The position numbers were made by a program, and so were the translations under genes. Positions 1-11,942 of a stretch of 11,942 nucleotides of DNA are shown piece by piece; within the stretch, counting starts at the first letter, position 1, and every line of letters starts with the position of its first letter. Under the pieces are notes generated by a model that did no database searches, was not told where the DNA came from, and was given only the letters and a program-made list of their open reading frames with translations. The DNA comes from a virus, in the UHGV virus genome UHGV-1569641, one strand, 5' to 3'.

Positions 1-228
1 CCTGGTCTCTTCCCAGGCGTCAAACCGAATCGCCACGCTGGTTAGGCGTCTTATCAGCATCATCATTGACTTGCACATTCCGGCTACCTGGTTTGTTTGC
101 CCGAGCAAGGAGTGGATTGTCCCCTTTAACGTCCCCAGACCGCTAACGACGCATGTGCCATACGCCGTGTTACAACCAAATTTTGTTAGTACCTTGTTTG
201 TTTGTCTGGAAAGAAAGACAAAATGAAG

Positions 229-267
229 TTGCGCATTATGCAAGTGTTTTTGTTGCGAGATATGCAA
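229..267. promoter_or_regulatory. Putative left operator (OL-like): two 15-bp dyad sites TTGCGCATTATGCAA (229-243) and TTGCGAGATATGCAA (253-267)
   Basis: Seen directly: two TTGCG-N5-ATGCAA sites 24 bp centre-to-centre just beyond the 3' end of the repressor gene; a third similar site TTGCGCGTTAAGCAA lies at 1036-1050 between repressor and cro. The layout matches lambdoid OL/OR. Promoter hexamers not pinned down. Confidence 0.4.
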
Positions 268-284
268 TTTAAAGGGTAATGAAA

Positions 285-302
285 AGCCACCTTTGGGTGG
301 CT
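285..302 (-). terminator. Possible intrinsic terminator downstream of the repressor gene
   Basis: 7-bp stem AGCCACC / GGTGGCT with 4-nt loop; on the minus strand it is followed by UUUC AUUACCCUUU (interrupted T-tract), about 20 nt after the repressor stop codon. Confidence 0.3.
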
Positions 303-322
303 AATTGATGAGGAGGTAAGGG

Positions 323-1015
323 TTAATTGTGTCGCTTAAGGGTTTGTGACTGGCTGATTAAGACCTTTCCAAAGACCATAAACCGGTGTTCATTTTCGCT
401 GGTAATTCCCCATTCACGGTAAATCTGGTTATCAGAAATCACCAGTAGTTTGTCAGGTATCATTTGCAGTCGTTTGACATAAATTTTATCATCAAAACCA
501 AATACATAGATACCATCTCCATCAAACTGATTGATACTGACATCAACGAAGATGAGATCTCCTGGCTCAATGGTTGGACACATACTGTCCCCACGAACGT
601 TGATAACTTTAATGTGATTGGCTGGCCGTCCGCCAAACATCGATACAGCATTATCAGTTCTGTATTCAATGGCATGAATCACATCAATGACATCACCGCC
701 CTGGATAAGGCCATTTCCCGCACTGGCACTGACATCCAGCATTTCAATACGGAATACATCCTTCACCTGCGCAACATCCTCACTAATACTGTTTTTACAT
801 ACAGTATTACTTTTGACGTCTGAGGTAAAGAGATCAGCAATATCAACACCTAAGCTCCTGGCAATATTACTCAGGGCTTGTTCAGTGAATTGTTTCTGCT
901 TACCTGTTTCCAGGCGTGAGATATTCGCCGCATCCACTCCTATTGCTTCAGCGAGATCGGCGATTTTCATGTTCTTCGCCTGGCGAAGTTGTCTGACTCG
1001 GTTTCCTATGTTCAT
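323..1015 (-). CDS. cI: CI-type phage repressor (N-terminal XRE-family HTH, C-terminal S24 LexA-like autopeptidase domain)
   Basis: 230-aa ORF. N-terminus has an HTH (QAKNMKIADLAEAIGVDAANISRLETGK). C-terminus has a GDSMCPTIEPGDLIFVD Ser motif and a downstream YVKRL Lys, consistent with a Ser-Lys dyad, plus an Ala-Gly candidate cleavage site (SASAGNG). Divergent from cro. No Shine-Dalgarno upstream of the ATG. Confidence 0.9.
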   Translation of the reverse strand: MNIGNRVRQLRQAKNMKIADLAEAIGVDAANISRLETGKQKQFTEQALSNIARSLGVDIADLFTSDVKSNTVCKNSISEDVAQVKDVFRIEMLDVSASAGNGLIQGGDVIDVIHAIEYRTDNAVSMFGGRPANHIKVINVRGDSMCPTIEPGDLIFVDVSINQFDGDGIYVFGFDDKIYVKRLQMIPDKLLVISDNQIYREWGITSENEHRFMVFGKVLISQSQTLKRHN

Positions 1016-1112
1016 GCGTTTATTACATTTCTTTATTGCGCGTTAAGCAAATCAACTTGCGCAAAATATTTGCGTGAAATAATATGCTCATCACGCAATA
1101 TGTGGAGGTCAT
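1016..1112. promoter_or_regulatory. Right operator / divergent promoter region (OR, PR rightward, PRM leftward)
   Basis: Repeated TTGCGC / GCGCAA half-sites, including TTGCGCGTTAAGCAA at 1036-1050 and the palindrome CGCAAAATATTTGCG at 1060-1074. Candidate PR: -35 TTGCGC (1057-1062), 17-bp spacer, -10 TAATAT (1080-1085), then GGAGG (1104-1108) before the cro ATG. Candidate PRM on minus strand: -35 TTGCTT (complement of 1045-1050), 17-bp spacer, -10 TGTAAT (complement of 1022-1027), about 7 nt from the cI ATG. Confidence 0.55.
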
Positions 1113-1373
1113 ATGCAATCACCATTACGGAATGTGCGTAAGGCGCACGGATTTACTTTGCAGCATGTTGCTGCTGGCGTTCAGGTCAATCCAGCGACGC
1201 TGAGTCGTATTGAAAGACTGGAACAAATTCCATCTATCGATCTTGCAGAACGTCTGGCCAATTTTTTTAAGGGTGAAATCAGCGAAATGCAGATTCTTTA
1301 TCCGGCACGTTTTCAATCTAGCCAAAACCAGAATGGGTTTAAACCACAGGAACAGGAGGTAAGCCGTGGGTAA
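1113..1373 (+). CDS. cro: Cro-like HTH transcriptional regulator (Cro/CI-type, YdaS-like)
   Basis: 86-aa ORF, first rightward gene, divergent from the repressor. HTH motif TLQHVAAGVQVNPATLSRIERLE. GGAGG RBS upstream. Overlaps the next gene by 8 nt. Confidence 0.8.
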   Translation: MQSPLRNVRKAHGFTLQHVAAGVQVNPATLSRIERLEQIPSIDLAERLANFFKGEISEMQILYPARFQSSQNQNGFKPQEQEVSRG

Positions 1374-1923
1374 TCATCACTGGAAAGTGGAAAAACAGCC
1401 TGAGTGGTACGTGAAAGCTGTCAGAAAAACTATCGCGGCGTTGCCGGGGGGTTACGCTGAAGCTGCTGAGTGGCTGGATGTAACAGAGAACGCATTATTT
1501 AACCGCCTTCGTGCCGATGGCGATCAGATTTTCCCGCTGGGATGGGCAATGATTTTACAACGTGCTGGTGGCACTCACTTCATTGCCGACGCTGTGGCGC
1601 AGTCTGCAAATGGCGTCTTTGTGTCTCTTCCTGACGTCGAGGATGTGGACAATGCCGATATTAACCAGCGTTTACTGGAAGTCATTGAACAGATCGGCAG
1701 TTATTCAAAACAGATTCGTTCGGCAATCGAAGACGGTGTAGTGGAACCGCATGAGAAGACAGCAATTAACGACGAGCTGTACCTCTCAATTTCGAAGCTG
1801 CAGGAGCATGCAGCACTTGTCTACAAAATTTTTTGCGTTTCAGAAAGTAATGACGCCCGCGAGTGTGCAGCTCCGGGCGTCGTGGCGTCGATTGCTTCTG
1901 GTTGTGGAGAAACTAACGCATGA
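1366..1923 (+). CDS. CII-like phage regulatory protein (Phage_CP76 / YdaT-like family), GTG start
   Basis: 185-aa ORF in the cII position immediately after cro. AGGAGG RBS precedes the GTG at 1366. N-terminal region resembles CII/CP76-type regulators as recalled, not searched. Confidence 0.65.
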
Positions 1924-2258
1924 ACAGTTTAACAACACACTACCGTCGCTCGCAACTGATTGCGCTTCCTGTACCGGGTGGAAAAGCGAAGGTGGAGTAT
2001 TGCTATGCAGTAAATGTACCAGGTGACAGGGAAATTGTAACCCACAGCTTTGCTGAGTGGGCTGTGGGAGATTTCAACCGGCAGAAGGAGACAGTCCTTT
2101 GCGACAAGTTAACCGCTGGTTCAAAGATCACTACGGAGTGCCCGTCAGAGTCATTCGTTGGGAGCCGGAAACACAACGGGTTATCTACCTCCGTGAAGGC
2201 TATGAGCATGAGTGCTTCAGCCCGCTCGAACAGTTTCGTCGTAAATTCAGGGAAATAG
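1920..2258 (+). CDS. Hypothetical protein (uncertain; overlaps the next ORF in another frame)
   Basis: 112-aa ORF starting in an ATGA overlap with the upstream stop codon (translational-coupling geometry). The C-terminal half is Ser-rich and low-complexity and overlaps 2057-2258 of the DUF4222-like ORF in a different frame, so at most one is real over that stretch. Confidence 0.25.
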
Positions 2259-2278
2259 AGGTCGGTCATGAGCACTAA
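2057..2278 (+). CDS. Small DUF4222-like phage protein (true start probably TTG at 2099)
   Basis: Protein-like sequence [52 protein letters not shown] resembles small lambdoid DUF4222-type proteins (recollection). AAGGAG at 2085-2090 precedes the in-frame TTG at 2099. The GTG at 2057 is the track start. Confidence 0.5.
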
Positions 2279-3209
2279 ATTAACCGGCTATGTATGGGAT
2301 GGTTGCGCTGCGTCAGGCATGAAATTATCCAGCGTGGCAATTATGGCCCGCCTGGCTGATTTCAGTAATGACGAAGGTGTGTGCTGGCCATCAATTGAAA
2401 CTATTGCCCGTCAGATTGGCGCGGGGATGAGTACCGTCAGAACGGCTATCGCACGGCTGGAAGCAGAAGGCTGGTTAACGCGTAAGGCGCGTCGCCAGGG
2501 TAACCGCAATGCGTCGAATGTTTATCAGCTTAACGTTGCGAAGCTTCAGGCAGCGGCATTTTCTCAACTGTCAGATTCTGACCCGTCAAAATCTGACGCA
2601 TCAAAATCTGACACGTCAAAATTTGATGCGTCGAAATCTGGCAAAAAAGCGGGTTTTCACCCGTCAGAATCTGGCGGGGATCCGTCAGTAAAATCAAAAC
2701 ATGATCCGTCAGATAAAAAACCTTCTCGTCCGGACGCTTCGCAACCGGACACGCAGACGGCTGAACAGGATTTTTTAACTCGCCATCCTGATGCGGTTGT
2801 ATTCAGCCCTAAAAAGCGCCAGTGGGGAACGCAGGATGATTTGACCTGCGCACAGTGGCTCTGGAAAAAAATCATTGCCCTGTACGAGCAGGCCGCCGAA
2901 TGTGACGGCGAGGTGGTTCGTCCCAAAGAACCGAACTGGACAGCATGGGCAAACGAAATTCGCCTGATGTGTGTGCAGGATGGTCGTACTCACAAACAAA
3001 TCTGCGAGATGTACAGCCGCGTCAGCCGCGATCCGTTCTGGTGCCGTAACGTGCTCAGCCCGTCGAAGTTGCGGGAAAAATGGGATGAGCTTTCCCTGCG
3101 CTTATCGCCGTCCGTCAGCACGCACACAGAAAAACGTGAAGACCCGTACTTCAAAGCCAGTTACGACAACGTGGACTACAGCCAGATCCCGGCAGGATTC
3201 AGGGGGTGA
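2268..3209 (+). CDS. Replication initiation protein, lambda O-like (N-terminal wHTH, iteron-encoded linker, C-terminal domain of unclear family)
   Basis: 313-aa ORF. N-terminal HTH-like DNA-binding region (SIETIARQIGAGMSTVRTAIARLEAEGWL). The middle of the gene holds tandem iterons encoding a low-complexity SKSD-rich linker, the same architecture as lambda O and ori. Confidence 0.75.
   Translation: MSTKLTGYVWDGCAASGMKLSSVAIMARLADFSNDEGVCWPSIETIARQIGAGMSTVRTAIARLEAEGWLTRKARRQGNRNASNVYQLNVAKLQAAAFSQLSDSDPSKSDASKSDTSKFDASKSGKKAGFHPSESGGDPSVKSKHDPSDKKPSRPDASQPDTQTAEQDFLTRHPDAVVFSPKKRQWGTQDDLTCAQWLWKKIIALYEQAAECDGEVVRPKEPNWTAWANEIRLMCVQDGRTHKQICEMYSRVSRDPFWCRNVLSPSKLREKWDELSLRLSPSVSTHTEKREDPYFKASYDNVDYSQIPAGFRG
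2568..2720. repeat. Iteron array (putative phage origin of replication) inside the O-like gene
   Basis: Seen directly: 15-bp tandem units CCGTCAAAATCTGAC (2583-2597), GCATCAAAATCTGAC (2598-2612), ACGTCAAAATTTGAT (2613-2627), GCGTCGAAATCTGGC (2628-2642), preceded by TCAGATTCTGAC (2571-2582). Further CCGTCAGA-type copies at 2661-2675, 2682-2695 and around 2705-2720. Units contain an internal dyad (TCAGA-N-TCTGA); an A-rich stretch follows. Confidence 0.7.
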
Positions 3210-3211
3210 TC

Positions 3212-3700
3212 ATGAGTCTTTTGAATGACGTTCAGAAATTCATTGAAGCCCATCCGGGCTGTACTTCCGGAGACATTGCGGATGCTTTTGCAGGTTACTC
3301 ACGGCAGCGCGTTCTGCAGTCAGCAAGCAAGTTACGTCAGAGTGGGCGTGTGGCTCACCGTTGTGAAGGAGATACACGCAGACATTTCCCGCGCCTGACT
3401 GAGAGAGCGCAGGAGCCGGAACCACAATCTGTTCGTGAAACCAGACCTGTGCGCAATTTCTATGTCGGCACTAACGACCCCCGGGTGATTTTGTGCCTGA
3501 CCCGCCAGGCGGAAGAACTGGAGTCCAGGGGCTTATACCGTCGTGCTGCAACGGTGTGGATGGCGGCATTCCGTGAAAGCCACTCCCAGCCAGAACGAAA
3601 CAATTTTCTGGCGCGTCGTGAACGGTGTTTACGGAAAAGCAGTAAGCGGGCTGCATCAGGTGAAGAGTGGTACCTCTCAGGGAATTACGTGGGGGCTTAA
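3212..3700 (+). CDS. PerC-family-like transcriptional regulator (N-terminal HTH-like region plus C-terminal PerC-like motif)
   Basis: ATG at 3212 preceded by a G-rich RBS; the track start at 3206 is an upstream GTG. C-terminal ELESRGLYRRAATVWMAAF...RRERCLRK resembles the PerC/Pch motif as recalled, not searched. Confidence 0.5.
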   Translation: MSLLNDVQKFIEAHPGCTSGDIADAFAGYSRQRVLQSASKLRQSGRVAHRCEGDTRRHFPRLTERAQEPEPQSVRETRPVRNFYVGTNDPRVILCLTRQAEELESRGLYRRAATVWMAAFRESHSQPERNNFLARRERCLRKSSKRAASGEEWYLSGNYVGA

Positions 3701-4352
3701 TGAGTAATAAATATTGCCAGGCGCTGGTGGAGCTGCGGAACAAACCAGCCCATGAACTGAAGGCAGTGGGCGATCAGTGGCGCACGCCGGACAACATTTT
3801 CTGGGGAATTAACACCCTGTTTGGCCCGTTTGTTCTGGATCTGTTCACTGACGGTGATAACGCCAAATGTGCTGCGTATTACACGGCGGAAGACAACGCG
3901 CTGGCGCATGACTGGTCAGAACGCCTTGCGGAGCTTAAAGGTGCTGCCTTTGGTAATCCCCCATACAGCCGCGCCAGTCAGCATTAGGGGCAATACATCA
4001 CCGGCATGCGTTACATCATGAAGCATGCCAGTGCCATGCGTGATAAAGGCGGGCGCTATGTTTTCCTGATCAAAGCTGCCACCAGCAAGTGTGGTGGCCG
4101 GAAGATGCAGATCATATTGCTTTTATTCGCGGGCGTATTGGTTTTGAACTGCCTGCCTGGTTTATCCCGAAGGATGAGAAGCAGGTGCCGACAGGCGCTT
4201 TCTTCGCTGGTGCTATTGCTGTTTTCGACAAGACCTGGAAGGGACCGGCAATCAGCTACATCGGGCGCGATGAACTTGAGGCATGTGGTGAGGCCTTTCT
4301 GGCGCAGGTTCGCCAGCAGGCAGAAAAACTGGTCAGGGAGATGGCGGCATGA
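3700..4352 (+). pseudogene. Phage Dam-type N6-adenine DNA methyltransferase, disrupted by an in-frame amber codon and a 1-nt frameshift
   Basis: N-terminal part (from ATG 3700) carries the catalytic NPPY motif (FGNPPYS) and ends at TAG 3985-3987. The same frame resumes with MTase-like sequence (KGGRYVFLIKAATSK), then the homologous sequence continues in the -1 frame from about 4089 (WWPEDADHIAFIRGRIGF...) to the stop at 4352, which overlaps the next gene start in ATGA. Confidence 0.6.
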
Positions 4353-4675
4353 CGACGTTAACTCAATGCCAGCAGCAGGTGCTGGATATGCTGATTTCTT
4401 ATCAGAAAGAACGTGGCTTCCCGCCAACCAATCAGGAGGTGGCAACCATGCTGGGATACCGTTCAGTGAATGCAGCGGTGGAGCATCTTCGCGCACTGGA
4501 GAAAAAAGGCGTCATCACGATAAAGCGTGGCGTGGCCCGGGGCATCACGCTTCATACCGCGGTGAAGGACGACGACAGCGAGGCGGTCGGGATTATCCGC
4601 TCACTGCTTGCCGGTGAGGAAAACGCAAGGCTGCGTGCAGCCCACTGGTTACATGAGAGGGGCCTGAAAGTATGA
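4349..4675 (+). CDS. LexA N-terminal DNA-binding-domain-like protein (winged helix; no peptidase domain)
   Basis: 108-aa ORF. LTQCQQQVLDMLISYQKERGFPPTNQEVATMLGYRSVNAAVEHLRALEKKGVI resembles the LexA N-terminal DNA-binding domain (recollection). ATGA-coupled to both neighbouring genes. Confidence 0.6.
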   Translation: MTTLTQCQQQVLDMLISYQKERGFPPTNQEVATMLGYRSVNAAVEHLRALEKKGVITIKRGVARGITLHTAVKDDDSEAVGIIRSLLAGEENARLRAAHWLHERGLKV

Positions 4676-5061
4676 AGCTGATCCTGCCTTTTCCGCCCAG
4701 CGTGAACACGTACTGGCGACACCCCAACAAAGGGGCGTTTGCTGGTAAGAGCCTGATAAGCGCGGCGGGGCGAAAATTCCAGAGCGCGGCGTGCGCAGCA
4801 ATAGTTGAGCAGTTACGTCGTCTGCCGAAACCAACGTCGGCACCTGCTTCAGTGGAGATCGTGTTGTTTCCTCCGGATAACAGGATCCGCGATCTGGACA
4901 ACTATAACAAGGCGCTGTTTGACGCCCTGACCCACGCGGGGGTGTGGGAAGACGACAGTCAGGTGAAAAGAATGCTGGTGGAGTGGGGACCGGTTATCCC
5001 GGAAGGGAAGGTCGAGATCACTATCAGTAAGTACGAGAAAACGGCGGGTGCAGCTGCCTGA
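4672..5061 (+). CDS. rusA: RusA-family Holliday junction resolvase
   Basis: 129-aa ORF with RusA-like features (PPSVNTYWRH near the N-terminus, DLDNYNKALFDALT acidic motif). Typical position in the lambdoid nin region. Confidence 0.8.
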   Translation: MKLILPFPPSVNTYWRHPNKGAFAGKSLISAAGRKFQSAACAAIVEQLRRLPKPTSAPASVEIVLFPPDNRIRDLDNYNKALFDALTHAGVWEDDSQVKRMLVEWGPVIPEGKVEITISKYEKTAGAAA

Positions 5062-5080
5062 TTAAGAGGAGAAACGAAGT

Positions 5081-5890
5081 ATGAATAATCTGATGGTCAT
5101 TGATGGTATTGAAGTTCGTCGTGATGCTTATGGGCGTTACAGCCTGAACGATCTGCATCGCGCAGCAGTAGCATCTGGTGCAAATGCCAGAACCAAGGAG
5201 CCAGGAAAGTTTCTTTCCAGCCAACAAACTGTTGAGCTTGTTCATGAATTAACCAACACCCAGAATTTGGGTGTTGACCCGGTGAGCGTGATTCATGGGG
5301 GAAATGAACGGGGAACGTATGTCTGTAAGGAACTGGTGTATGCCTATGCAATGTGGATCAGCCCGTCATTCCATCTGAAGGTGATCCGTACTTTCGATAT
5401 GGTAACCAGCGCGCCGGAAAAGTTATCCGGACAGGCTGCTGACAAGATGCAGGCTGGCGTGATTCTGCTGGACTTTATGCGCCGGGAGTTAAATCTGTCT
5501 AACTCATCTGTGCTTGGGGCCTGTCAGAAACTCCAGGAGGCTGTTGGCTTACCGAATCTGGCACCGCGCTATGCCATTGATGCACCTGCTGACGCGCCTG
5601 ATGGCTCAAGCCGCCCCACGCTGTCGCTGAGTGCACTGCTGAAGCAGTATGGTATCCGCCTGACGGCTAATCAGGCATATCACCAGATGGCGAAGCTGGG
5701 GATCGTTGAACAACGCGAACGATACAGCCGTACCGCGATTAACAACATCAAAAAATTCTGGTCGCTGACAGCGAAAGGCTGCATGTTCGGCAAGAACATC
5801 ACCAGTCCCGCAAATCCGCGCGAGACGCAGCCGCATTTCTTCGAATCCCGATTCCCTGAGCTGTTAAAGCTGCTCGATACCGTTCATTGA
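5081..5890 (+). CDS. KilA-N domain protein (Roi / antirepressor-like)
   Basis: 269-aa ORF. The N-terminus (VIDGIEVRRDAYGRYSLNDLHRAA...QQTVELVHEL) matches the KilA-N pattern. Strong RBS AAGAGGAGA upstream. Confidence 0.7.
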   Translation: MNNLMVIDGIEVRRDAYGRYSLNDLHRAAVASGANARTKEPGKFLSSQQTVELVHELTNTQNLGVDPVSVIHGGNERGTYVCKELVYAYAMWISPSFHLKVIRTFDMVTSAPEKLSGQAADKMQAGVILLDFMRRELNLSNSSVLGACQKLQEAVGLPNLAPRYAIDAPADAPDGSSRPTLSLSALLKQYGIRLTANQAYHQMAKLGIVEQRERYSRTAINNIKKFWSLTAKGCMFGKNITSPANPRETQPHFFESRFPELLKLLDTVH

Positions 5891-5891
5891 G

Positions 5892-6887
5892 GTGACCGTG
5901 AGAGCACTACTGACCCCTGAAATTGCCCCGCGTATGGGGATCGTATTGTTCAGGCCAGGTTCAGAGCTGATGCCCCTGTTTATGCAGGGGCGTGTCCTGC
6001 TGGAGCCTGAGCCGGAACGTTATTCATCTTTTGCCAGTGGTGCCGTTCCGGCTGCATCACAACCGCTGGCGGATGATCCTGCCGTTCGGGCCGTGTTCCG
6101 CAATGAGGCAGTGATCCGTCGTGCTGGTGGCGTGGAATGTCTTGAAAGCTGGTTACTTCGTGAAAAAGGCTGCCAGTGGCCTCATTCCGGATGGCACAGC
6201 GAGAACATGACCACAATGCGACACGCTCCGGGTGCAATCCGTCTGTGCTGGCACTGCGATAACCAGTTGCGCGATCAGTTCACGGAACGGCTGGAATCAA
6301 TGGCAACGGATAACTGTGCCCGCTGGGTGTTGTCTGTTGTGCGTCGGGATCTCGGTTTTGATGACAGTCACGTTGTGACAATGCCGGAACTGTGCTGGTG
6401 GCTGATTCGTAATGATCTGGCGGATGCCTTACCGGAAAGTGCAGCCCGTAAGGCACTGAGATTACCGAAGCCTGTTGTGCCGTCTGTCACCCGGGAAAGT
6501 GACCTGGTGCCTTCGGTTCCTGCCACCAGCATCATCCAGGATAAAGCGAAAAAGGTGCTGGCGCTGAAAGTGGATCCGGAGTCGCCGGACTCTTTTATGT
6601 TACGCCCAAAACGTCGCCGCTGGGTTAATGAAAAGTACACGCGATGGGTTAAGACGCAGCCGTGCGCATGTTGTGGAAAACCTGCTGATGATCCCCACCA
6701 CCTGATAGGCCACGGTCAGGGTGGAATGGGGACAAAAGCGCATGACCTCTTTGTGTTGCCTTTGTGCAGAAAGCATCACGACGAGCTGCATGCGGATAAT
6801 GTGGCATTCGAAGAGAAGTATGGCTCCCAGCTGGAGCTGATATTTCGTTTTATCGATCGTGCGCTGACGATTGGTGTGCTGGCCTGA
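5892..6887 (+). CDS. DUF968-like (YdfU-like) phage protein with C-terminal Cys/His-rich putative metal-binding motif
   Basis: 331-aa ORF; start uncertain (GTG 5892 or GTG 5898 after GAGG). C-terminal [22 protein letters not shown]...[10 protein letters not shown]. Sits immediately upstream of Q, as ydfU does relative to quuQ in the Qin prophage (recollection). Confidence 0.55.
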
Positions 6888-6904
6888 TTTTGTGGAGAAA
6901 GTTG

Positions 6905-7288
6905 ATGCGTGATATTCAGATGGTTCTTGAGCGTTGGGGAGCGTGGGCGGCTAATAATCATGAAGATGTGACCTGGTCGTCCATTGCCGCCGGTTTTAAG
7001 GGATTAATTCCTTCAAAAGTAAAATCTCGCCCGCAATGTTGTGACGATGACGCGATGATCATTTGCGGGTGCATGGCCCGTCTGAAAAAGAACAACAGCG
7101 ATTTGCACGATTTATTAGTAGATTATTATGTAGTCGGTATGACATTCATGTCACTGGCAGGTAAGCATTGCTGCTCTGATGGTTATATCGGGAAAAGGTT
7201 ACAAAAAGCTGAGGGCATAATTGAAGGGATGTTAATGGCATTAGATATCCGGTTAGAGATGGATATCGTTGTTAATAACTCTAATTAA
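6905..7288 (+). CDS. Late-gene antitermination protein Q (Q21/Q82-type)
   Basis: 127 aa from the ATG at 6905 (GGAGAAAG RBS); the track start at 6890 is an upstream TTG. Cys-rich zinc-binding-like motifs ([20 protein letters not shown]). Located just upstream of the late region. Confidence 0.8.
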
Positions 7289-7309
7289 TATGCCAATTGT
7301 TTACTAAAA

Positions 7310-7339
7310 ATTATTAAAAATGGGGCGTTGAGACGCCCC
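7310..7339 (-). terminator. Rho-independent terminator for the porin transcript (minus strand)
   Basis: Stem GGGGCG / CGCCCC (7322-7327 / 7334-7339) with loop TTGAGA; on the minus strand it is followed by A-UUUUU-AAUAAUUUUU. Confidence 0.55.
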
Positions 7340-7358
7340 CAAAAATAAAGGGTAATAT
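7328..7358 (+). promoter_or_regulatory. Candidate late promoter PR' / qut region (approximate)
   Basis: Inference from position (Q-dependent late promoters lie just downstream of Q) plus sigma70-like hexamers TTGAGA (7328-7333) and TAATAT (7353-7358, 19-bp spacer) or GGTAAT (17-bp spacer). Not strongly supported by sequence alone. Confidence 0.3.
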
Positions 7359-7427
7359 ATAACAGAAGGTTTATATAGTTAGAAGCAAGGTTGTGCTTCT
7401 AAAGGAAGTGGCTTGAGGGAGCCACTT

Positions 7428-7467
7428 ATATGTTGGGGAGGCAACGCCTCCCGCAACATATCTTTTT
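7428..7467 (+). terminator. Rho-independent terminator on the plus strand (candidate tR' / end of the Q transcript)
   Basis: Long GC-rich stem (ATATGTTGGGGAGG / CCTCCCGCAACATAT, one bulged G) with 5-nt loop, followed by C-TTTTT. The strand-specific T-tract is on the plus strand only. Lies immediately before the convergent porin stop codon. Confidence 0.6.
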
Positions 7468-7477
7468 CGTAATCAGA

Positions 7478-8560
7478 TTAGAACTGGTAAACCAGACCTA
7501 CAGCAACGATGTCATCAGTATCAATACCAGCTGTTTTGGTAAACTTACTATCGTCAATTAAGTTGATTTTGTAATCAACAAAAGTGGACATGTTTTTATT
7601 AAAGTAGTAAGTAGCACCGACATCGACATACTTGACTAAGTCTCGGTCACCATGAACACCAAGGTCTTTACCTTTTGACTGAAGGTAAGCAACAGATGGG
7701 CGCAGACCGAAGTCAAACTGATATTGTGCTACTGCTTCAAAGTTTTGTGCTTTGTTTGCAATATGGTTATTACCAAAAACGGTCATATTCTGAGTTTCAG
7801 AATATGTGGTAGCCAGATAGATATTGTTCGCATCATATTTCAGGCCTGCAGCCCATACTTCCGCATTTTTGCCGGAGGCATTGAATTTGCTCTTACCATA
7901 GGCGACCTGACCGTCAGTGCGATCTGATTTAGCATAGGTTGCACCCACGCCGAATCCTTCATACTCATAAGTAGTGGAGAAACCGAAACCATCACCATTG
8001 GCTTCAGTTACGTCAGTGCGGTCATTTTTACCCTGATACTGAGCAGCAAAGTTCAGGCCATCGACCAGACCAAAGAAGTCGTTGTTACGATAAGTTGCAA
8101 CACCAGTAGTGCGACCAGTCATGAACACATCTGTTTGGGTCCAGGTATCACCACCGAATTCTGGCAGGACGTCAGTCCACGCACCGATGTCGTATGCTAC
8201 ACCGTAGTTACGGCCGTAATCGATTGAGCCGTAATCACCAAATTTCAGGCCTGCAAATGCAAGACGGGTTTTGTCTTTGGAAGAACCTTGAGATTCAGCG
8301 CGGTTGCCTTTGAATTCATATTCCCACTGACCGAAACCAGTCAGTTGATCGTTGATTTGGGTTTCACCTTTGAAGCCAAGACGGGCATAAGTAGTATCAC
8401 CATCATCTGCATCATTAGAGGAGAAGTAGTGCTTAGCATTAACTTTCCCGTACAGATCCAGCTTGTTACTGTCTTTATTATAAATTTCAGCTGCCTGAGC
8501 AGACATCGCCATCAGTACTGATGCAGCTACAGCAGAAATTGCCACTGTTAATTTTTTCAT
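7478..8560 (-). CDS. nmpC: Outer-membrane general porin, NmpC / Lc / OmpD-type (prophage-encoded, lysogenic-conversion porin)
   Basis: 360-aa ORF with signal peptide ([29 protein letters not shown]), porin motifs ([19 protein letters not shown]) and C-terminal VYQF. Opposite orientation to the flanking phage genes; appears intact. Confidence 0.9.
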
Positions 8561-8988
8561 CGTGAGCCCTTTTTTTTGAACTATTATTAAAAAATGATGT
8601 CACTGCGCGATAAATATTCATCTAATCAATGTGATTATTTCAAGATGTAAGTTTTGGTTTCTCGTTTGATTTGTGAAGTAGATCTCTATTTTTATCTGAA
8701 CTTTTTTCTATCGAATCCTATTCATAGCTCTTGGCTGAATAAAAATAAATCTATTAGCCAATTTATACTAACGGTTGTTATTTATAAGTGCTCTATAATT
8801 TGAAGGTTCAATTTAAATCGGCTAAAAATAACACTGGAAATTATTTGTTGGTTATTTGTTGAGATTTGCTTATGTATTTGTAGTGGTGTTTTCAATACTC
8901 GGTAGCATTCTCGCAAATATCATTTAGTGGTTTACGTACGTAAAAAATTGGTTATGCTGTTAAGAGTGGTTACTTCGTCACACAGCTT
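8561..8988 (-). promoter_or_regulatory. AT-rich upstream regulatory region of the porin gene (promoter not pinned down)
   Basis: About 570 bp of AT-rich non-coding DNA between the porin start and the holin gene. AAGGG RBS about 8 nt upstream of the porin ATG. Contains a tandem GTTATTTGTTG motif at 8840-8861. Confidence 0.35.
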
Positions 8989-9012
8989 AAACCCGCCGTC
9001 GAGCGGGTTTTT
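8989..9012 (+). terminator. Rho-independent terminator-like hairpin on the plus strand, upstream of the lysis cassette
   Basis: AAACCCGC-cgtcga-GCGGGTTT followed by TTTTT cc ATTTTTT on the plus strand; about 120 nt upstream of the holin start. Confidence 0.5.
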
Positions 9013-9133
9013 CCATTTTTTGAGTCTCGATATTAGCTGATAACCCAATACCTGAGTTATTCACTGACTTCGAGTCTGTTACGTTTCGTAGTATTCCCTC
9101 AATTTACACCCGCTTTGTCTGCGAGGTGGGGTT

Positions 9134-9349
9134 ATGAAATCCATGGATAAGTTAACAACGGGTGTCGCCTATGGCACCTCAGCAGGTAGTGCCGGGTACT
9201 GGTTTTTACAGCTGCTAGATAAAGTCACGCCCTCACAGTGGGCGGCAATTGGAGTGCTGGGTAGCCTGGTATTTGGCCTGCTGACGTACCTGACAAACCT
9301 TTATTTCAAGATTAAAGAAGATAAGCGTAAGGCTGCGAGAGGTGAATAA
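9134..9349 (+). CDS. S: Class II holin, S21-type pinholin, with dual-start motif
   Basis: 71 aa, two transmembrane segments, N-terminal MKSMDK (Met1/Met4 dual start typical of S21), C-terminal charged tail [13 protein letters not shown]. Very similar to phage 21 S as recalled. Confidence 0.9.
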
Positions 9350-9846
9350 TGTCGCCATCATTACGCAAGGCTGTAGCAGCTGCTATTGGTGGTGGGGCTG
9401 TTGCCATAGCGTCTGTGCTCATCACTGGTCCGAGTGGTGACGATGGTCTGGAAGGTGTCAGCTACATACCATATAAAGATATTGTTGGTGTATGGACTGT
9501 ATGTCACGGGCATACAGGAAAAGACATCATGCTCGGTAAAACGTATACCAAAGCAGAATGCAAAGCACTCTTGAATAAAGACCTTGCCACTGTCGCCAGA
9601 CAAATTAACCCGTACATCGAAGTCGATATACCGGAAACAACGCGCGGCGCTCTTTACTCATTCGTTTACAACGTGGGTGCTGGCAATTTCAGAACATCGA
9701 CGCTTCTTCGCAAAATAAACCAGGGCGATATCAAAGGCGCATGTGATCAGCTACGGCGCTGGACATACGCTGGCGGTAATCAATGGAAAGGACTGATGAC
9801 TCGCCGTGAGATTGAGCGTGAAGTCTGTTTGTGGGGGAAACAATGA
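9349..9846 (+). CDS. R: SAR endolysin (phage 21 R-type lysozyme, GH24 / T4-lysozyme fold)
   Basis: 165 aa. N-terminal Gly/Ala-rich weakly hydrophobic signal-anchor-release segment ([20 protein letters not shown]), then lysozyme core ([12 protein letters not shown]...VWTVCHG). Start overlaps the holin stop (TAATG). Confidence 0.9.
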
Positions 9847-10301
9847 GCAGAGTAACCGCGATTATCTCCGCTCTGGTTATCTGCATCATCGTCTGCCTGT
9901 CATGGGCTGTTAATCATTACCGTGATAACGCCATTACCTACAAAGCCCAGCGCGACAAAAATGTCAGAGAACTGGAGAAGGCGAACGCCACCATCGCTGA
10001 CATGCGGAAGCGTCAACGTGATGTAGCAGAACTCGATGCAAGATACACAAAGGAGCTTGCTGATGCTAACGCGACTATCGAAAGTCTCCGTGCTGATGTT
10101 TCTGCTGGGCGTAAGCGCCTGCAAGTCGCCGCCACCTGTGCAAAGTCAACGACCGGAGCCAGCGGCATGGGCGATGGAGAAAGCCCAGGACTTACAGCAG
10201 ATGCTGAACTCAATTATTACCGTCTCCGAAGTGGAATCGACAAGATAACCGCGCAGGTTAACTACCTGCAGGAATACATCAGGACGCAATGCCTGAAATA
10301 A
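9843..10301 (+). CDS. Rz: Rz-like inner-membrane spanin (i-spanin)
   Basis: ATG at 9843 overlaps the lysozyme stop (ATGA). N-terminal TM helix ([14 protein letters not shown]) and coiled-coil periplasmic domain. Track start 9831 is an upstream alternative. Confidence 0.8.
10063..10248 (+). CDS. Rz1: Rz1-like outer-membrane lipoprotein spanin (o-spanin), embedded in Rz in the +1 frame
   Basis: ORF fully inside Rz. Lipobox LLGVSAC followed by a Pro-rich mature region ([13 protein letters not shown]). Start chosen at the internal Met ([20 protein letters not shown]) of the 10036-10248 track ORF. Confidence 0.7.
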
Positions 10302-10333
10302 TTTTTTTGCAAATCACAAAGTCCATTTAATGA

Positions 10334-10355
10334 GCCTCGCGATGCGGGGCTTTTT
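10334..10355 (+). terminator. Rho-independent terminator after the lysis cassette (first of two)
   Basis: Stem GCCTCGC / GCGGGGC (one G-U pair), 3-nt loop, followed by TTTTT. Confidence 0.5.
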
Positions 10356-10362
10356 GCAATAA

Positions 10363-10387
10363 ATGCGTACCGCAACGCATGTTTTTT
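10363..10387 (+). terminator. Rho-independent terminator after the lysis cassette (second)
   Basis: ATGCGT-accgca-ACGCAT hairpin followed by G-TTTTTT. Confidence 0.5.
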
Positions 10388-10502
10388 ACACCGAATCTGC
10401 CCCTTTGGAATGGGCCTTTGAGGATACCAGTTAGTGCTGGCGAGCCTCGGTGGGCTGGTTTCCTGTGCGGCAAAGGTTCATTTCAAAGAGTAGGTACACG
10501 CT

Positions 10503-11000
10503 ATGAAATCATTAACCCTCTTCAATTAACCAATTCGTATCGGTGAAGATGGCATGATCTGCCTCACTGATATGTGGAAAGCCAGTGGTAAAAGTGAATC
10601 TGAATCGCCTTACCACTACCTGCGAAACAAGCAGACCAAAGAGTTCTTAGCCGAGCTGGAGAAAAACCACGAATCTGTGGTTTTTACTGAGCGCGGTGTA
10701 CACGGTGGAACATATGGCGGGAAGTTTGTTGCTTACGATTATGCGGCTTGGTTAAACCCCGGGTTCAAGTACGCGGCCTATAAAGTCCTCGATGACTACT
10801 TCACCGGAGAACTTCAGCATCGCAACAGCTTAAGTGCGCAGCTCAACATGAAATGTCATGAGTTTGACCAGAAGAAAGACATGGCGAGCTTCTGCGGACA
10901 AGGGCTGGCAGCATGGCGCTATACGAAGCCAGTGTTGGTCGCTGAGATTAACTCCCTGGCTAACCAGCTGCAGATTACGATCCCCGGGCTTCCGGGATGA
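10503..11000 (+). pseudogene. KilA-N domain protein interrupted by an in-frame TAA near the N-terminus (a truncated product from ATG 10554 is possible)
   Basis: ATG at 10503, eight codons (MKSLTLFN), TAA at 10527-10529, then the same frame continues PIRIGEDGMICLTDMWKASGK...EFLAELEK, a KilA-N-type N-terminus. The first downstream ATG is 10554, which is the track ORF 10554-11000. Confidence 0.5.
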
Positions 11001-11266
11001 GTGATCATGTTATTGAATGCGCCTCCAGAGCGGGGCGCGACTTCTCAGAGTTCATGAAAGGCGAGAAGGGCATGATGGAAGCATTGGCCTCGGTGGACGA
11101 GTTTGGCGAGCAGCTGCGCCTCAACGGCTGTGTCAATCATCACTTTGTTAGCTACATGATGCGGAACTCGATCATGCAGGCATTCATGGACATGGCAAAA
11201 GCCGAGAGGAAAGAAGAGCGCCGGCGTAAGCGAGCGGAAGCAAAAGCAAAAGCAAAAGTGAAGTAG
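10997..11266 (+). CDS. Hypothetical small protein with Lys/Glu/Ala-rich C-terminal tail
   Basis: 89-aa ORF starting in an ATGA overlap with the KilA-N stop. C-terminal AKAERKEERRRKRAEAKAKAKVK. No family recognised. Confidence 0.45.
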   Translation: MSDHVIECASRAGRDFSEFMKGEKGMMEALASVDEFGEQLRLNGCVNHHFVSYMMRNSIMQAFMDMAKAERKEERRRKRAEAKAKAKVK

Positions 11267-11303
11267 CCATTACAAAGCCCATTTACGGGTGGGCTTGATA
11301 ATG
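11256..11303 (+). repeat. Hairpin-containing repeat, copy 1 (AAGTGAAG-TAG-CCATTAC-AAAGCCCA-loop-TGGGCTT-GATAATG)
   Basis: Seen directly: stem AAGCCCA (11275-11281) / TGGGCTT (11290-11296), followed by GATAATG; begins at the stop codon of the 89-aa ORF. Paired with copy 2 at 11552-11606. Confidence 0.5.
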
Positions 11304-11490
11304 AAACCGGAATTTATTCTGGGCCACCAGTTAACGGCAGTACCACGAAACAACCCAAGCCAGTAAGTGGGGAAATAACACCGGCAGCCACTGAAAGATG
11401 AACCTCCTGCCTTATGGCAAAAAAGATTCTTTGTGGTGGCGGACTGATGGAAAGACATCCTAATTTCAGCCAAACATTGAAGGAGTTGTT

Positions 11491-11562
11491 ATGTCAGCAG
11501 AAGGTTTCAATAACCCATCAAAATTCCGGGATGAGTGGGATAGCAGCGTAAAGAGTAAGTGA
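11491..11562 (+). CDS. Possible 23-aa small ORF (MSAEGFNNPSKFRDEWDSSVKSK)
   Basis: ATG preceded by a strong SD (GAAGGAG, 5-nt spacer). Too short to judge; could be a gene remnant. Confidence 0.2.
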   Translation: MSAEGFNNPSKFRDEWDSSVKSK

Positions 11563-11606
11563 TGCCATCACAAAAGCCATTCCCTACAGAGTGGCTTTGA
11601 TAATGG
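11552..11606 (+). repeat. Hairpin-containing repeat, copy 2 (AAGAGTAAG-TGA-TGCCATCAC-AAAAGCCA-loop-TGGCTTT-GATAATGG)
   Basis: Seen directly: stem AAAGCCA (11574-11580) / TGGCTTT (11592-11598), followed by GATAATGG; begins at the stop codon of the 23-aa ORF. The stem sequence differs from copy 1 but pairing is preserved. Confidence 0.5.
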
Positions 11607-11803
11607 CTTATACCCTACACGGGATAACTTAACTGATATCCCTTTTAAAGGATAAAGGTATTCAAGCCTGACATATCATGCGCTGTATCGTCGCCGTATT
11701 CCCGTATTAACAGAGACCGTAGCCCGACGGGGAACTCCTTCTGCGCGAGTGTGCAGGAATAATCAAAAACGATGCACACCGGGGGTACCGGGTACACATA
11801 TTT

Positions 11804-11942
11804 GGTGATGCTGCCAACTTACTGATTTAGTGTATGATGGTGTTTTTGAGGTGCTCCAGTGGCTTCTGTTTCTATCAGCTGTCCCTCCTGTTCAGCTACT
11901 GACGGGGTGGTGCGTAACGGCAAAAGCACCGCCGGACATCAG
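11804..11942 (+). mobile_element. IS1 insertion sequence, left end (inverted repeat plus start of insA); continues beyond the window
   Basis: GGTGATGCTGCCAACTTACTGATTTAGTGTATGATGGTGTTTTTGAGGTGCTCCAGTGGCTTCTGTTTCTATCAGCTGTCCC... matches the IS1 terminal inverted repeat and 5' region as recalled. Confidence 0.85.
11859..11942 (+). CDS. insA: IS1 InsA (transposition regulator / N-terminal part of the InsAB' transposase), 5' partial, GTG start
   Basis: Translation from GTG 11859 gives (M)[27 protein letters not shown], the InsA N-terminus with its zinc-finger Cys residues. Runs off the window edge. Confidence 0.8.

Follow-up and report, generated by a model that had tools for sequence, protein, structure and literature searches.

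A conserved, covarying hairpin predicted behind stop codons at the lysis-to-packaging junction of lambdoid phages

Results

Two copies of a hairpin element in a DLP12-like prophage

The virus genome UHGV-1569641, analyzed here as one stretch of 11,942 nucleotides (nt) that we call the window, is a DLP12-like lambdoid prophage of Escherichia coli. Downstream of its lysis genes, the window carries two copies of a short hairpin element on the + strand, each placed directly behind an open reading frame (ORF). A preliminary description, made from the letters alone, had pointed out both hairpins, and they are present in the sequence as it described them. The features of this region are as follows.

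11268–11303, + strand: core of hairpin copy 1, subtype A, core sequence CATTACAAAGCCCATTTACGGGTGGGCTTGATAATG; lower stem CAUUA/UAAUG, internal loop CA/GA, upper stem AAGCCCAUU/GGUGGGCUU, loop UACG
11566–11605, + strand (extended, 11564–11607): core of hairpin copy 2, subtype B, core sequence CATCACAAAAGCCATTCCCTACAGAGTGGCTTTGATAATG; lower stem with one C.A mismatch, upper stem AAAGCCAUU/GAGUGGCUUU
10997–11266, + strand: ORF of 89 amino acids, similar to hkbL of phage HK620, upstream of copy 1 (from the ORF list and the annotation in relatives)
11491–11562, + strand: predicted ORF of 23 amino acids, MSAEGFNNPSKFRDEWDSSVKSK, with a strong, near-consensus ribosome-binding site (AAGGAG-N5-ATG) and its stop 3 nt before copy 2
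11304–11459, + strand: conserved non-coding block between the copies, common to P22, HK620, and VSe13
11606–11668, + strand: most frequent right-flank module, GCTTATACCCTACACGGGATAAC...GGATAAAGG, which follows elements of subtypes A, B, and C

In copy 1, the stop codon TAG of the 89-residue ORF (11264–11266) is followed by a single base and then the core; in copy 2, three bases separate the stop codon TGA of the 23-residue ORF (11560–11562) from the core. Both copies are predicted to fold into the lower stem CAUUA/UAAUG, a 2 × 2 internal loop CA/GA, and an upper stem nine pairs long, and an inverted repeat search lengthened the helix of copy 2 to 11564–11607 through GC/GC flank pairs. The folding energies are −15.8 kcal/mol for copy 1 and −16.7 kcal/mol for copy 2 (z = −3.1 and −3.3 relative to shuffled sequences). 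Two covariance models, R1 and R2, which were built from relatives, single out precisely these two sites within the 11.9-kb window. With R1, copy 1 scores 55.7 bits and copy 2 scores 54.6 bits (E of about 1e-12); with R2, the scores are 53.9 and 49.4 bits, respectively, and the next matches reach at most 11.8 bits.

The conserved unit runs from CAT(T/C)AC to AATG. The “AAG-stop” that had been counted as the shared start of the element turned out to be coincidental, the two upstream ORFs being unrelated. The hairpin at 285–313, taken at the same time for a similar element, scores 10.5 bits (E of about 1) and is an ordinary minus-strand terminator: positions 285–302 form a canonical Rho-independent terminator, AGCCACCCAAAGGTGGCT then TTTCATTACC, which lies 20 nt past the stop of the cI-like repressor gene at 323–1015. 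A full third copy after the Rz gene (10305–10370) was also considered and ruled out, as there is no covariance-model match and the site holds a left-arm remnant only. This remnant, ATCACAAAGTCCATTTA at 10313–10329, starts 11 nt past the Rz stop, is 88% identical to copy 1, and is followed by two canonical terminators (10333–10357 and 10363–10389).

Copies 1 and 2 are only about 70 to 78% alike, their cores agreeing at about 28 of 36 aligned positions, and they belong to different subtypes. The idea that they are remnants of a duplicated gene junction, or the product of a recent local duplication, was thus abandoned: each has counterparts of 90 to 100% identity in other phages, set between unrelated flanks, and each is nearer to those counterparts than to its partner in the window.

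A widespread family in enterobacterial phages and prophages

A search of related phages and genomes for further copies, as proposed in the preliminary description, revealed a widespread family. When the gap was compared by BLAST with E. coli genomes and phages, the matches formed a patchwork: many began precisely at copy 1 or copy 2, and some covered nothing but the 36- to 41-nt element, for example in mEp213 and E. coli ES5. Related hairpins lie between Rz and the small-terminase gene in HK620, P22, VSe13, and mEp213, and copies that are 90 to 100% identical to copy 1 occur in HK620, mEp213, and VSe13 and in prophages of Enterobacter, Leclercia, and Budvicia. The P22 hairpin is of subtype C and spans 40311–40347 of BK000583. 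At least 120 viral contigs match the sequence downstream of copy 2; three subtypes (A, B, and C) precede that sequence, and the sequences upstream of them are many. Subtype B was found behind at least five different upstream sequences in IMG/VR contigs. The pattern CATTACAGRG...CYCGATAATG yielded at least 120 further viral contigs, a group that BLAST places in Klebsiella temperate phages.

A species-level genome scan, the sole scan that left both flanks free, found subtypes A and B in Escherichia, including E. albertii, and in Shigella, Enterobacter, Leclercia, Pseudocitrobacter, and Budvicia. It also matched a few metagenome bins labeled as other phyla, the sequences of which match enterobacterial copies. 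Among complete E. coli genomes, subtype A (90–100% identical) was located at 1567 places, spread over 1359 of 5426 genomes; the median is one copy and the maximum four copies per genome. With so few copies, the family is not a dispersed host repeat. All copies that were examined lie in phage or prophage late regions, most phages carry one or two copies only, and the stretch of DLP12 examined in K-12 lacks the element.

None of the 4227 families of Rfam 15 reached its gathering threshold over the elements, the window, and 17 related loci, and at E ≤ 10 only chance-level matches appeared (e.g., mir-458, 22 bits against a threshold of 59). The GenBank record of HK620 has nothing annotated at 18882–18917 or 19135–19171, the positions of its two element copies, and our literature searches by sequence and by topic found no description of the element.

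Covariation and strand preference

Within the family, the element is 36 to 42 nt long and comprises a sequence-conserved lower stem (CAUUA/UAAUG) of 5 to 7 base pairs (bp), a 2 × 2 internal loop, and an upper stem of 8 to 10 bp, the sequence of which drifts while its pairing persists. All members end in YATTRCA ... GAYAATG. The internal loop is CA/GA in 40 of 40 variants, which is partly so by construction because these positions belonged to the search patterns. The lower stem usually has 7 bp, because both outer flank positions covary: the two positions outside the core are paired in 117 and 114 of 141 contexts, with 65 and 100 expected, respectively.

Pairing was assessed in several ways. 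Among 30 distinct sequences, the helix pairs in 98.6% of cells (32 to 52% after sliding of the partners), and in five of the pairs both sides change. In a set of 52 distinct sequences aligned with the covariance model, 98.2% of cells pair and 9 of the 14 pairs change on both sides. These 52 sequences contain 27 additional pair types, whereas shuffles contain 19.2 ± 1.5, and none of 500 shuffles reached the observed number. An alignment-free count gave the same picture, in that 72 of 75 unique sequences with the basal motif form at least six of the first seven upper pairs (1.4% expected at random), with 29 different upper-arm 7-mers, including wholly unrelated stems such as GGGGGCGG/CTGCCCCC. 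The pairing thus survives many compensatory changes in related genomes, which bears out the earlier suggestion of a selected secondary structure; judged by these comparisons, the predicted structure is under selection.

The comparisons also differ between the strands. Read on the + strand, 59 of 560 cells are G.U pairs, which become C.A mismatches if the minus strand is read; only six cells favor the minus strand. The position −1/+1 is G.U or U.G in 67 of 141 contexts. A minus-strand model scores 18 to 23 bits, as compared with 36 to 61 bits on the + strand, and within a locus every copy is oriented like the lysis and terminase genes. These patterns identify the late-gene (+) strand as the putative functional strand.

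Placement behind stop codons

When complete genomes of HK620 and Klebsiella phage Mulock were scanned with the covariance model, copies were found only between the spanin and terminase genes. A stop triplet lies 1 to 3 nt upstream of the element in 91 of 141 distinct contexts (65%). By contrast, the gap to the following ORF that has a ribosome-binding site varies between 16 nt and more than 400 nt. This variable downstream distance indicates that the element is tied to the end of the upstream gene.

The upstream genes are mutually unrelated. They include hkbL-like genes (a KilA-N partner), two kinds of Rha, a gene of the Gp49/Sf6 gp66 family, a Tad2-like gene (Thoeris anti-defense domain), a membrane protein, other genes without known function, and Rz/Rz1 themselves. 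One contig (L229) carries three copies behind three successive small genes, ahead of an HNH-terminase module, and has a canonical terminator directly before one of these three elements. The presence of that terminator next to the element argues that the two are distinct.

Element edges and mosaic joints

Across the aligned loci, the left flank carries about 0.1 bit of information per position, as compared with 1.3 to 2.0 bits from the first base of the element onward. Among the contigs sampled, the left flanks fall into 34 classes and the right flanks into 19, joined in mixed combinations, and 18 different left flanks are joined through the element to the module at 11606–11668. BLAST matches to other phages start or stop exactly at the element, and in the species-level scan the flanks differ for nearly every match. 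In HK620, CATTACAAA is fused to a terminator, and in mEp213 a full element stands behind the same left flank. The edges of the element are thus sharp mosaic breakpoints that join unrelated genes, and the truncated copies (in HK620 and at 10313–10329 of the window) mark breakpoints inside the element. One contig (L131) carries a hybrid element with subtype-B arms and a subtype-C-like loop.

The stretch between the two copies is itself composite. The block of about 150 nt at 11304–11459 is almost identical in P22, HK620, and Salmonella phage VSe13, and one-base indels exclude that it is coding. It stops sharply at GAAAGACATC, beyond which five different continuations were seen, and GAAAGACATC behaves as an insertion point for different genes. 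The 23-residue ORF together with copy 2 forms an insert behind this block, and the same insert is found in several IMG/VR contigs; the ORF is without annotation in relatives. The block shows no covariation signal, with too little variation to judge structure, and a weak partial match to Rfam Proteo-phage-1 lies inside it at 11354–11389.

Inverted motifs of the GGGATAA/TTATCCC type were seen just downstream of elements, at 11618–11665 of the window, at 2537–2600 of contig L003, and in contigs L131 and L137. L131 contains GCGGGGATAA, a 10-mer that also forms the 3' part of the type I-E repeat of the clustered regularly interspaced short palindromic repeats (CRISPR) of E. coli; the agreement may be due to chance.

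Genomic setting of the window

The remaining genes of the window are arranged as follows.

323–1015, minus strand: cI-type repressor gene
Between the repressor and the lysis genes: early genes, then a porin gene
9134–10301: holin, lysozyme, and Rz genes
10554–11000, + strand: KilA-N gene, co-oriented with the 89-residue ORF

HK620 has the same 89-residue gene together with the element, and the 89-residue protein of the window has no Pfam match. The KilA-N gene carries a C-to-T change at 10527 (within 10503–10553) that makes codon 9 TAA (CAA in a relative, L001), and the gene is either inactivated or restarts at ATG 10554. The 3' side of the 89-residue gene has about 540 bp without an annotated gene, followed by the left end of insertion sequence IS1 from 11804. 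In intact relatives, the gap is followed by convergent DUF1398 and YlcI genes and then by the nohD terminase gene; in the window, the IS1 left end (11804–11942), which extends past the window edge, takes the place of the convergent genes. Positions 11679–11783 are conserved to phage lambda (about 79% identity) and to many Shiga toxin (Stx) phages, and in intact relatives the corresponding stretch is situated beyond the 3' end of DUF1398, a minus-strand gene.

Discussion

The comparisons described above delineate a conserved, strand-specific, and covarying hairpin family that is anchored to stop codons, is confined to the lysis-to-packaging junction of lambdoid and P22-like phages of Enterobacterales, and coincides with recombination joints. 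The spread of the family at this junction, its anchoring to stop codons, and the coincidence of its edges with mosaic breakpoints go beyond the preliminary description. Our preferred reading is that both sites in the window belong to a conserved stem-loop family that is functional when the + strand is single-stranded, the most likely form being RNA within the Q-dependent late transcript, and we assign this reading a probability of about 0.5. Of the roles that such an RNA could have, the most likely is that of an intercistronic hairpin that processes or stabilizes late mRNA, the conserved base of which doubles as recombination homology.

In such a scheme, the hairpin would serve as an RNase III-type site, with an irregular helix of about 16 to 19 positions, or, alternatively, as a barrier to 3' exonucleases. 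The upstream cistron would thereby gain a protected 3' end, and the fate of the lysis and accessory messages would be uncoupled from that of the packaging and head messages downstream. The near-identical unit of 36 to 40 nt would at the same time give phage recombinases enough homology, and it may be because the unit offers this homology that unrelated genes are joined at its edges and that accessory genes are trailed by a copy.

Several observations weigh against this reading. The processing or stability role, which the preliminary description had listed among its possibilities and which remains the best reading, is inferred rather than demonstrated, and this applies to the RNA-level role as a whole and to both the RNase III and the exonuclease-barrier mechanism. 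The strong sequence conservation of the base (CAUUACA...GAUAAUG) exceeds what either RNA mechanism needs and hints at a specific binding partner or at homogenization by recombination. The G.U asymmetry is also compatible with a hairpin of + strand single-stranded DNA. The many other gaps between cistrons of the late operon lack the element, an absence that a purely general “punctuation” role leaves unexplained, and P22 lacks the first copy behind rha, so that a given copy is dispensable. Finally, the viral-contig samples were picked by patterns that fix part of the element or one flank.

If the element acted as DNA, it could be a + strand single-stranded hairpin or a conserved “linker” near the terminase-made end, serving as a recombination hotspot or in end protection and having no role as RNA. 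Its restriction to the lysis/packaging junction, beside the cos/pac region, is in line with this, as are the sharp mosaic breakpoints at its edges, the truncated copies that place breakpoints inside the element (HK620 CATTACAAA as compared with the full mEp213 copy), and the identity of the favored strand, which is the one with the 3' end when a nuclease enters from the right. Chi sites are clustered at the right end of some lambdoid phages, with the same orientation logic as the element (PMC12315714). A perfect Chi octamer on the favored strand occurs only in some subtype-A variants of Enterobacter and Leclercia: in the prophages L133 and L137, GCTGGTGG spans the loop and 3' arm, in the orientation that is active when RecBCD enters from the right genome end. 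Neither copy in the window has a Chi, and neither Chi nor a + strand one-mismatch Chi occurs in 11200–11700. A homology patch needs no hairpin, yet compensatory changes keep the pairing, and anchoring to the stops of co-oriented genes suits a feature of the transcript and not of a DNA end. Moreover, the element accompanies at least three unrelated terminase types (NohD, P22 gp3, and HNH plus P27-like) and is also found in headful phages, which have no fixed end. We therefore consider a purely DNA-level role unlikely. A dedicated recombinase or nuclease that recognizes the folded single strand and swaps accessory genes, much as at integron attC sites, would account for the conserved inverted ends and for the central palindrome between them, the sequence of which varies while its structure is kept, for the position directly after ORF stops in one orientation with arrays of up to three “gene + site” units, and for cassette boundaries that coincide with the element edges. 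Hybrid elements such as that of L131 exist, and the cargo includes anti-defense-type genes, for example, the Tad2-like protein. Yet no associated recombinase is known or was seen, the core differs from the R''/R' sites of attC, conserved extrahelical bases are not evident, most phages have one or two copies, and near identity over 36 to 40 nt suffices for ordinary phage homologous recombination. A speculative proposal, which we hold to be a long shot, makes the element the site at which a phage gene-cassette system recombines: a phage or host enzyme would recognize the folded + strand hairpin, with its base shared by every member compared (CATTACA/GATAATG), and would insert and exchange accessory and anti-defense genes at the lysis–terminase hotspot. 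An attC-like site in the strict sense seems slightly more doubtful still. If the cassette system did exist, it would be a lambdoid-phage analog of integron attC sites.

The adjacency of a stop codon in 65% of contexts also invites an explanation in terms of translation, in which the terminating ribosome opens the hairpin, and the hairpin modulates termination or recycling or couples or insulates the next cistron. In the Klebsiella-type group, the ribosome-binding site of the small terminase follows about 7 nt after the element, with the ATG at 19 nt, and the conserved 3' arm terminates in UGAUAAUG. In 87 of 164 contexts, however, the next ORF with a ribosome-binding site is more than 100 nt away or none was found, and more than 1 kb behind copy 2 is free of co-oriented genes. 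Nor does the hairpin sequester the ribosome-binding sites downstream of it, and the internal ATG of the element opens no conserved ORF (9 codons in copy 2, 3 codons in HK620, and 25 amino acids in P22). We judge translational control to be improbable. Intrinsic termination, either on the + strand for accessory transcripts or on the minus strand for the convergent DUF1398/YlcI genes, might be suggested by the stability and fairly high G+C content of both hairpins and by the sequences UUUGUAAU and UUUUGUGAU that follow subtypes A and B on the minus strand. The preliminary description had held that the hairpins are not classic terminators, and this view stands: a terminator scan passed over both copies, finding no qualifying T-tract on either strand, a U-run is missing from subtypes C and D and from the Klebsiella group whichever strand is read, and the 3' flank is GAUAAUG in all members. 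The commonest variants gain C.A mismatches when read on the minus strand, and P22-like phages have no convergent genes at this position. In many phages, co-oriented genes of the same operon follow within 16 to 50 nt, so that the element is not at the end of a transcription unit, and canonical terminators sit right before the L229 element and, as a pair, after Rz in the window. A terminator function is thus very improbable and largely excluded.

Other readings were tried and dropped. For a promoter at TTGATAAT, inspection revealed no usable −35/−10 pair and the scan found none. The ATG of GATAATG does not behave as a start codon, as the reading frames behind it lack conservation and are interrupted by indels and early stop codons, and the apparent excess of third-position changes in “MKPEFILG...” is undone by a frame-breaking indel. 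A signal for stop-codon readthrough or recoding does not fit with the occurrence of all three stops, the varying distances, and the lack of a conserved extension. Flanks showed no consistent target-site duplication of the kind expected for an insertion resembling a miniature inverted-repeat transposable element, and a binding site for the small terminase is at odds with the unrelated terminase families that the element accompanies.

If an RNA-level role in the late transcript is correct, P22, HK620, and about one-quarter of complete E. coli genomes carry a covarying structured element that is unannotated in Rfam and in the records examined. The element lies where lambdoid phages keep fast-changing accessory and anti-defense genes, and its edges are mosaic joints. 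It would offer a handle on how lysis and morphogenesis messages are treated differently within one giant late transcript and on how modules are exchanged at precise boundaries. In practical terms, a small covariance model could serve as a marker that locates the accessory-gene hotspot and the cassette borders in Enterobacterales prophages.

Comparison with known systems

Polycistronic mRNAs of phage T7 contain intercistronic RNase III processing hairpins (the R0.3 to R18.5 sites). The element resembles them in being an intercistronic hairpin of a long phage transcript, with an irregular helix of about two turns and an internal loop, in recurring at several gene junctions with recognizable sequence between copies, and in that cleavage on the 3' side would leave a protective hairpin on the upstream message. 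An irregular hairpin of about 1.5 to 2 turns with an internal loop between cistrons, as is typical of RNase III sites, is indeed what the element forms. Its helix is somewhat shorter (7 + 2 + 8–10 positions), and cleavage is only putative. Whereas the T7 sites are spread along the operon, the element is confined to the lysis–terminase region and tied to stops and mosaic joints.

Repetitive extragenic palindromic (REP) sequences stabilize upstream mRNA against 3' exonucleases. Like REP and the bacterial interspersed mosaic elements (BIME), the element is an imperfect palindrome of about 35 to 40 nt placed after stop codons inside operons. REP/BIME are, however, dispersed in hundreds of copies on the host chromosome, as compared with the median of one and maximum of four per E. 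coli genome found here; the sequence differs as well, and no association of the element with a REP-associated tyrosine transposase (RAYT) was seen.

The likeness to integron attC sites lies in the conserved inverted ends around a variable but structurally kept palindrome, in the use of one strand, and in the location directly behind promoterless ORFs, in arrays, where cassette boundaries are marked. The core of the element is CATTACA/GATAATG, as opposed to RYYYAAC/GTTRRRY in attC, and its arrays have constant orientation and only one to three units. No intI-type integrase or attI is annotated in the HK620, P22, Mulock, and E. coli loci examined, although no systematic search was made.

Structured RNAs are also found in the accessory (“moron”) regions of lambdoid prophages among the Rfam families AgvB, AsxR, STnc100, Esr41, IsrK, and Proteo-phage-1, and in this respect they are akin to the element. 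AgvB and AsxR are located downstream of PR', before the lysis genes (PMC4104026). Identity with these anti-small RNAs was rejected because the locus differs, the element being situated behind the lysis genes and AgvB/AsxR before them (PMC4104026).

The element also shares with the lambdoid “linkers” the property of being short and conserved between modules of phages that are unrelated on both sides, and HK620 itself has two copies of the element. It differs from them in being, in addition, a strongly covarying, strand-specific hairpin, which a mere homology patch would not need. Such linker or boundary sequences for the exchange of lambdoid modules reportedly go back to the modular theory of Susskind and Botstein and are said to have been treated for HK620 by Clark et al. 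in 2001. Viewed as an intercistronic hairpin of a phage, the element is thus unusual in three traits, namely its shared base sequence, its confinement to a single region, and its link to cassette borders.

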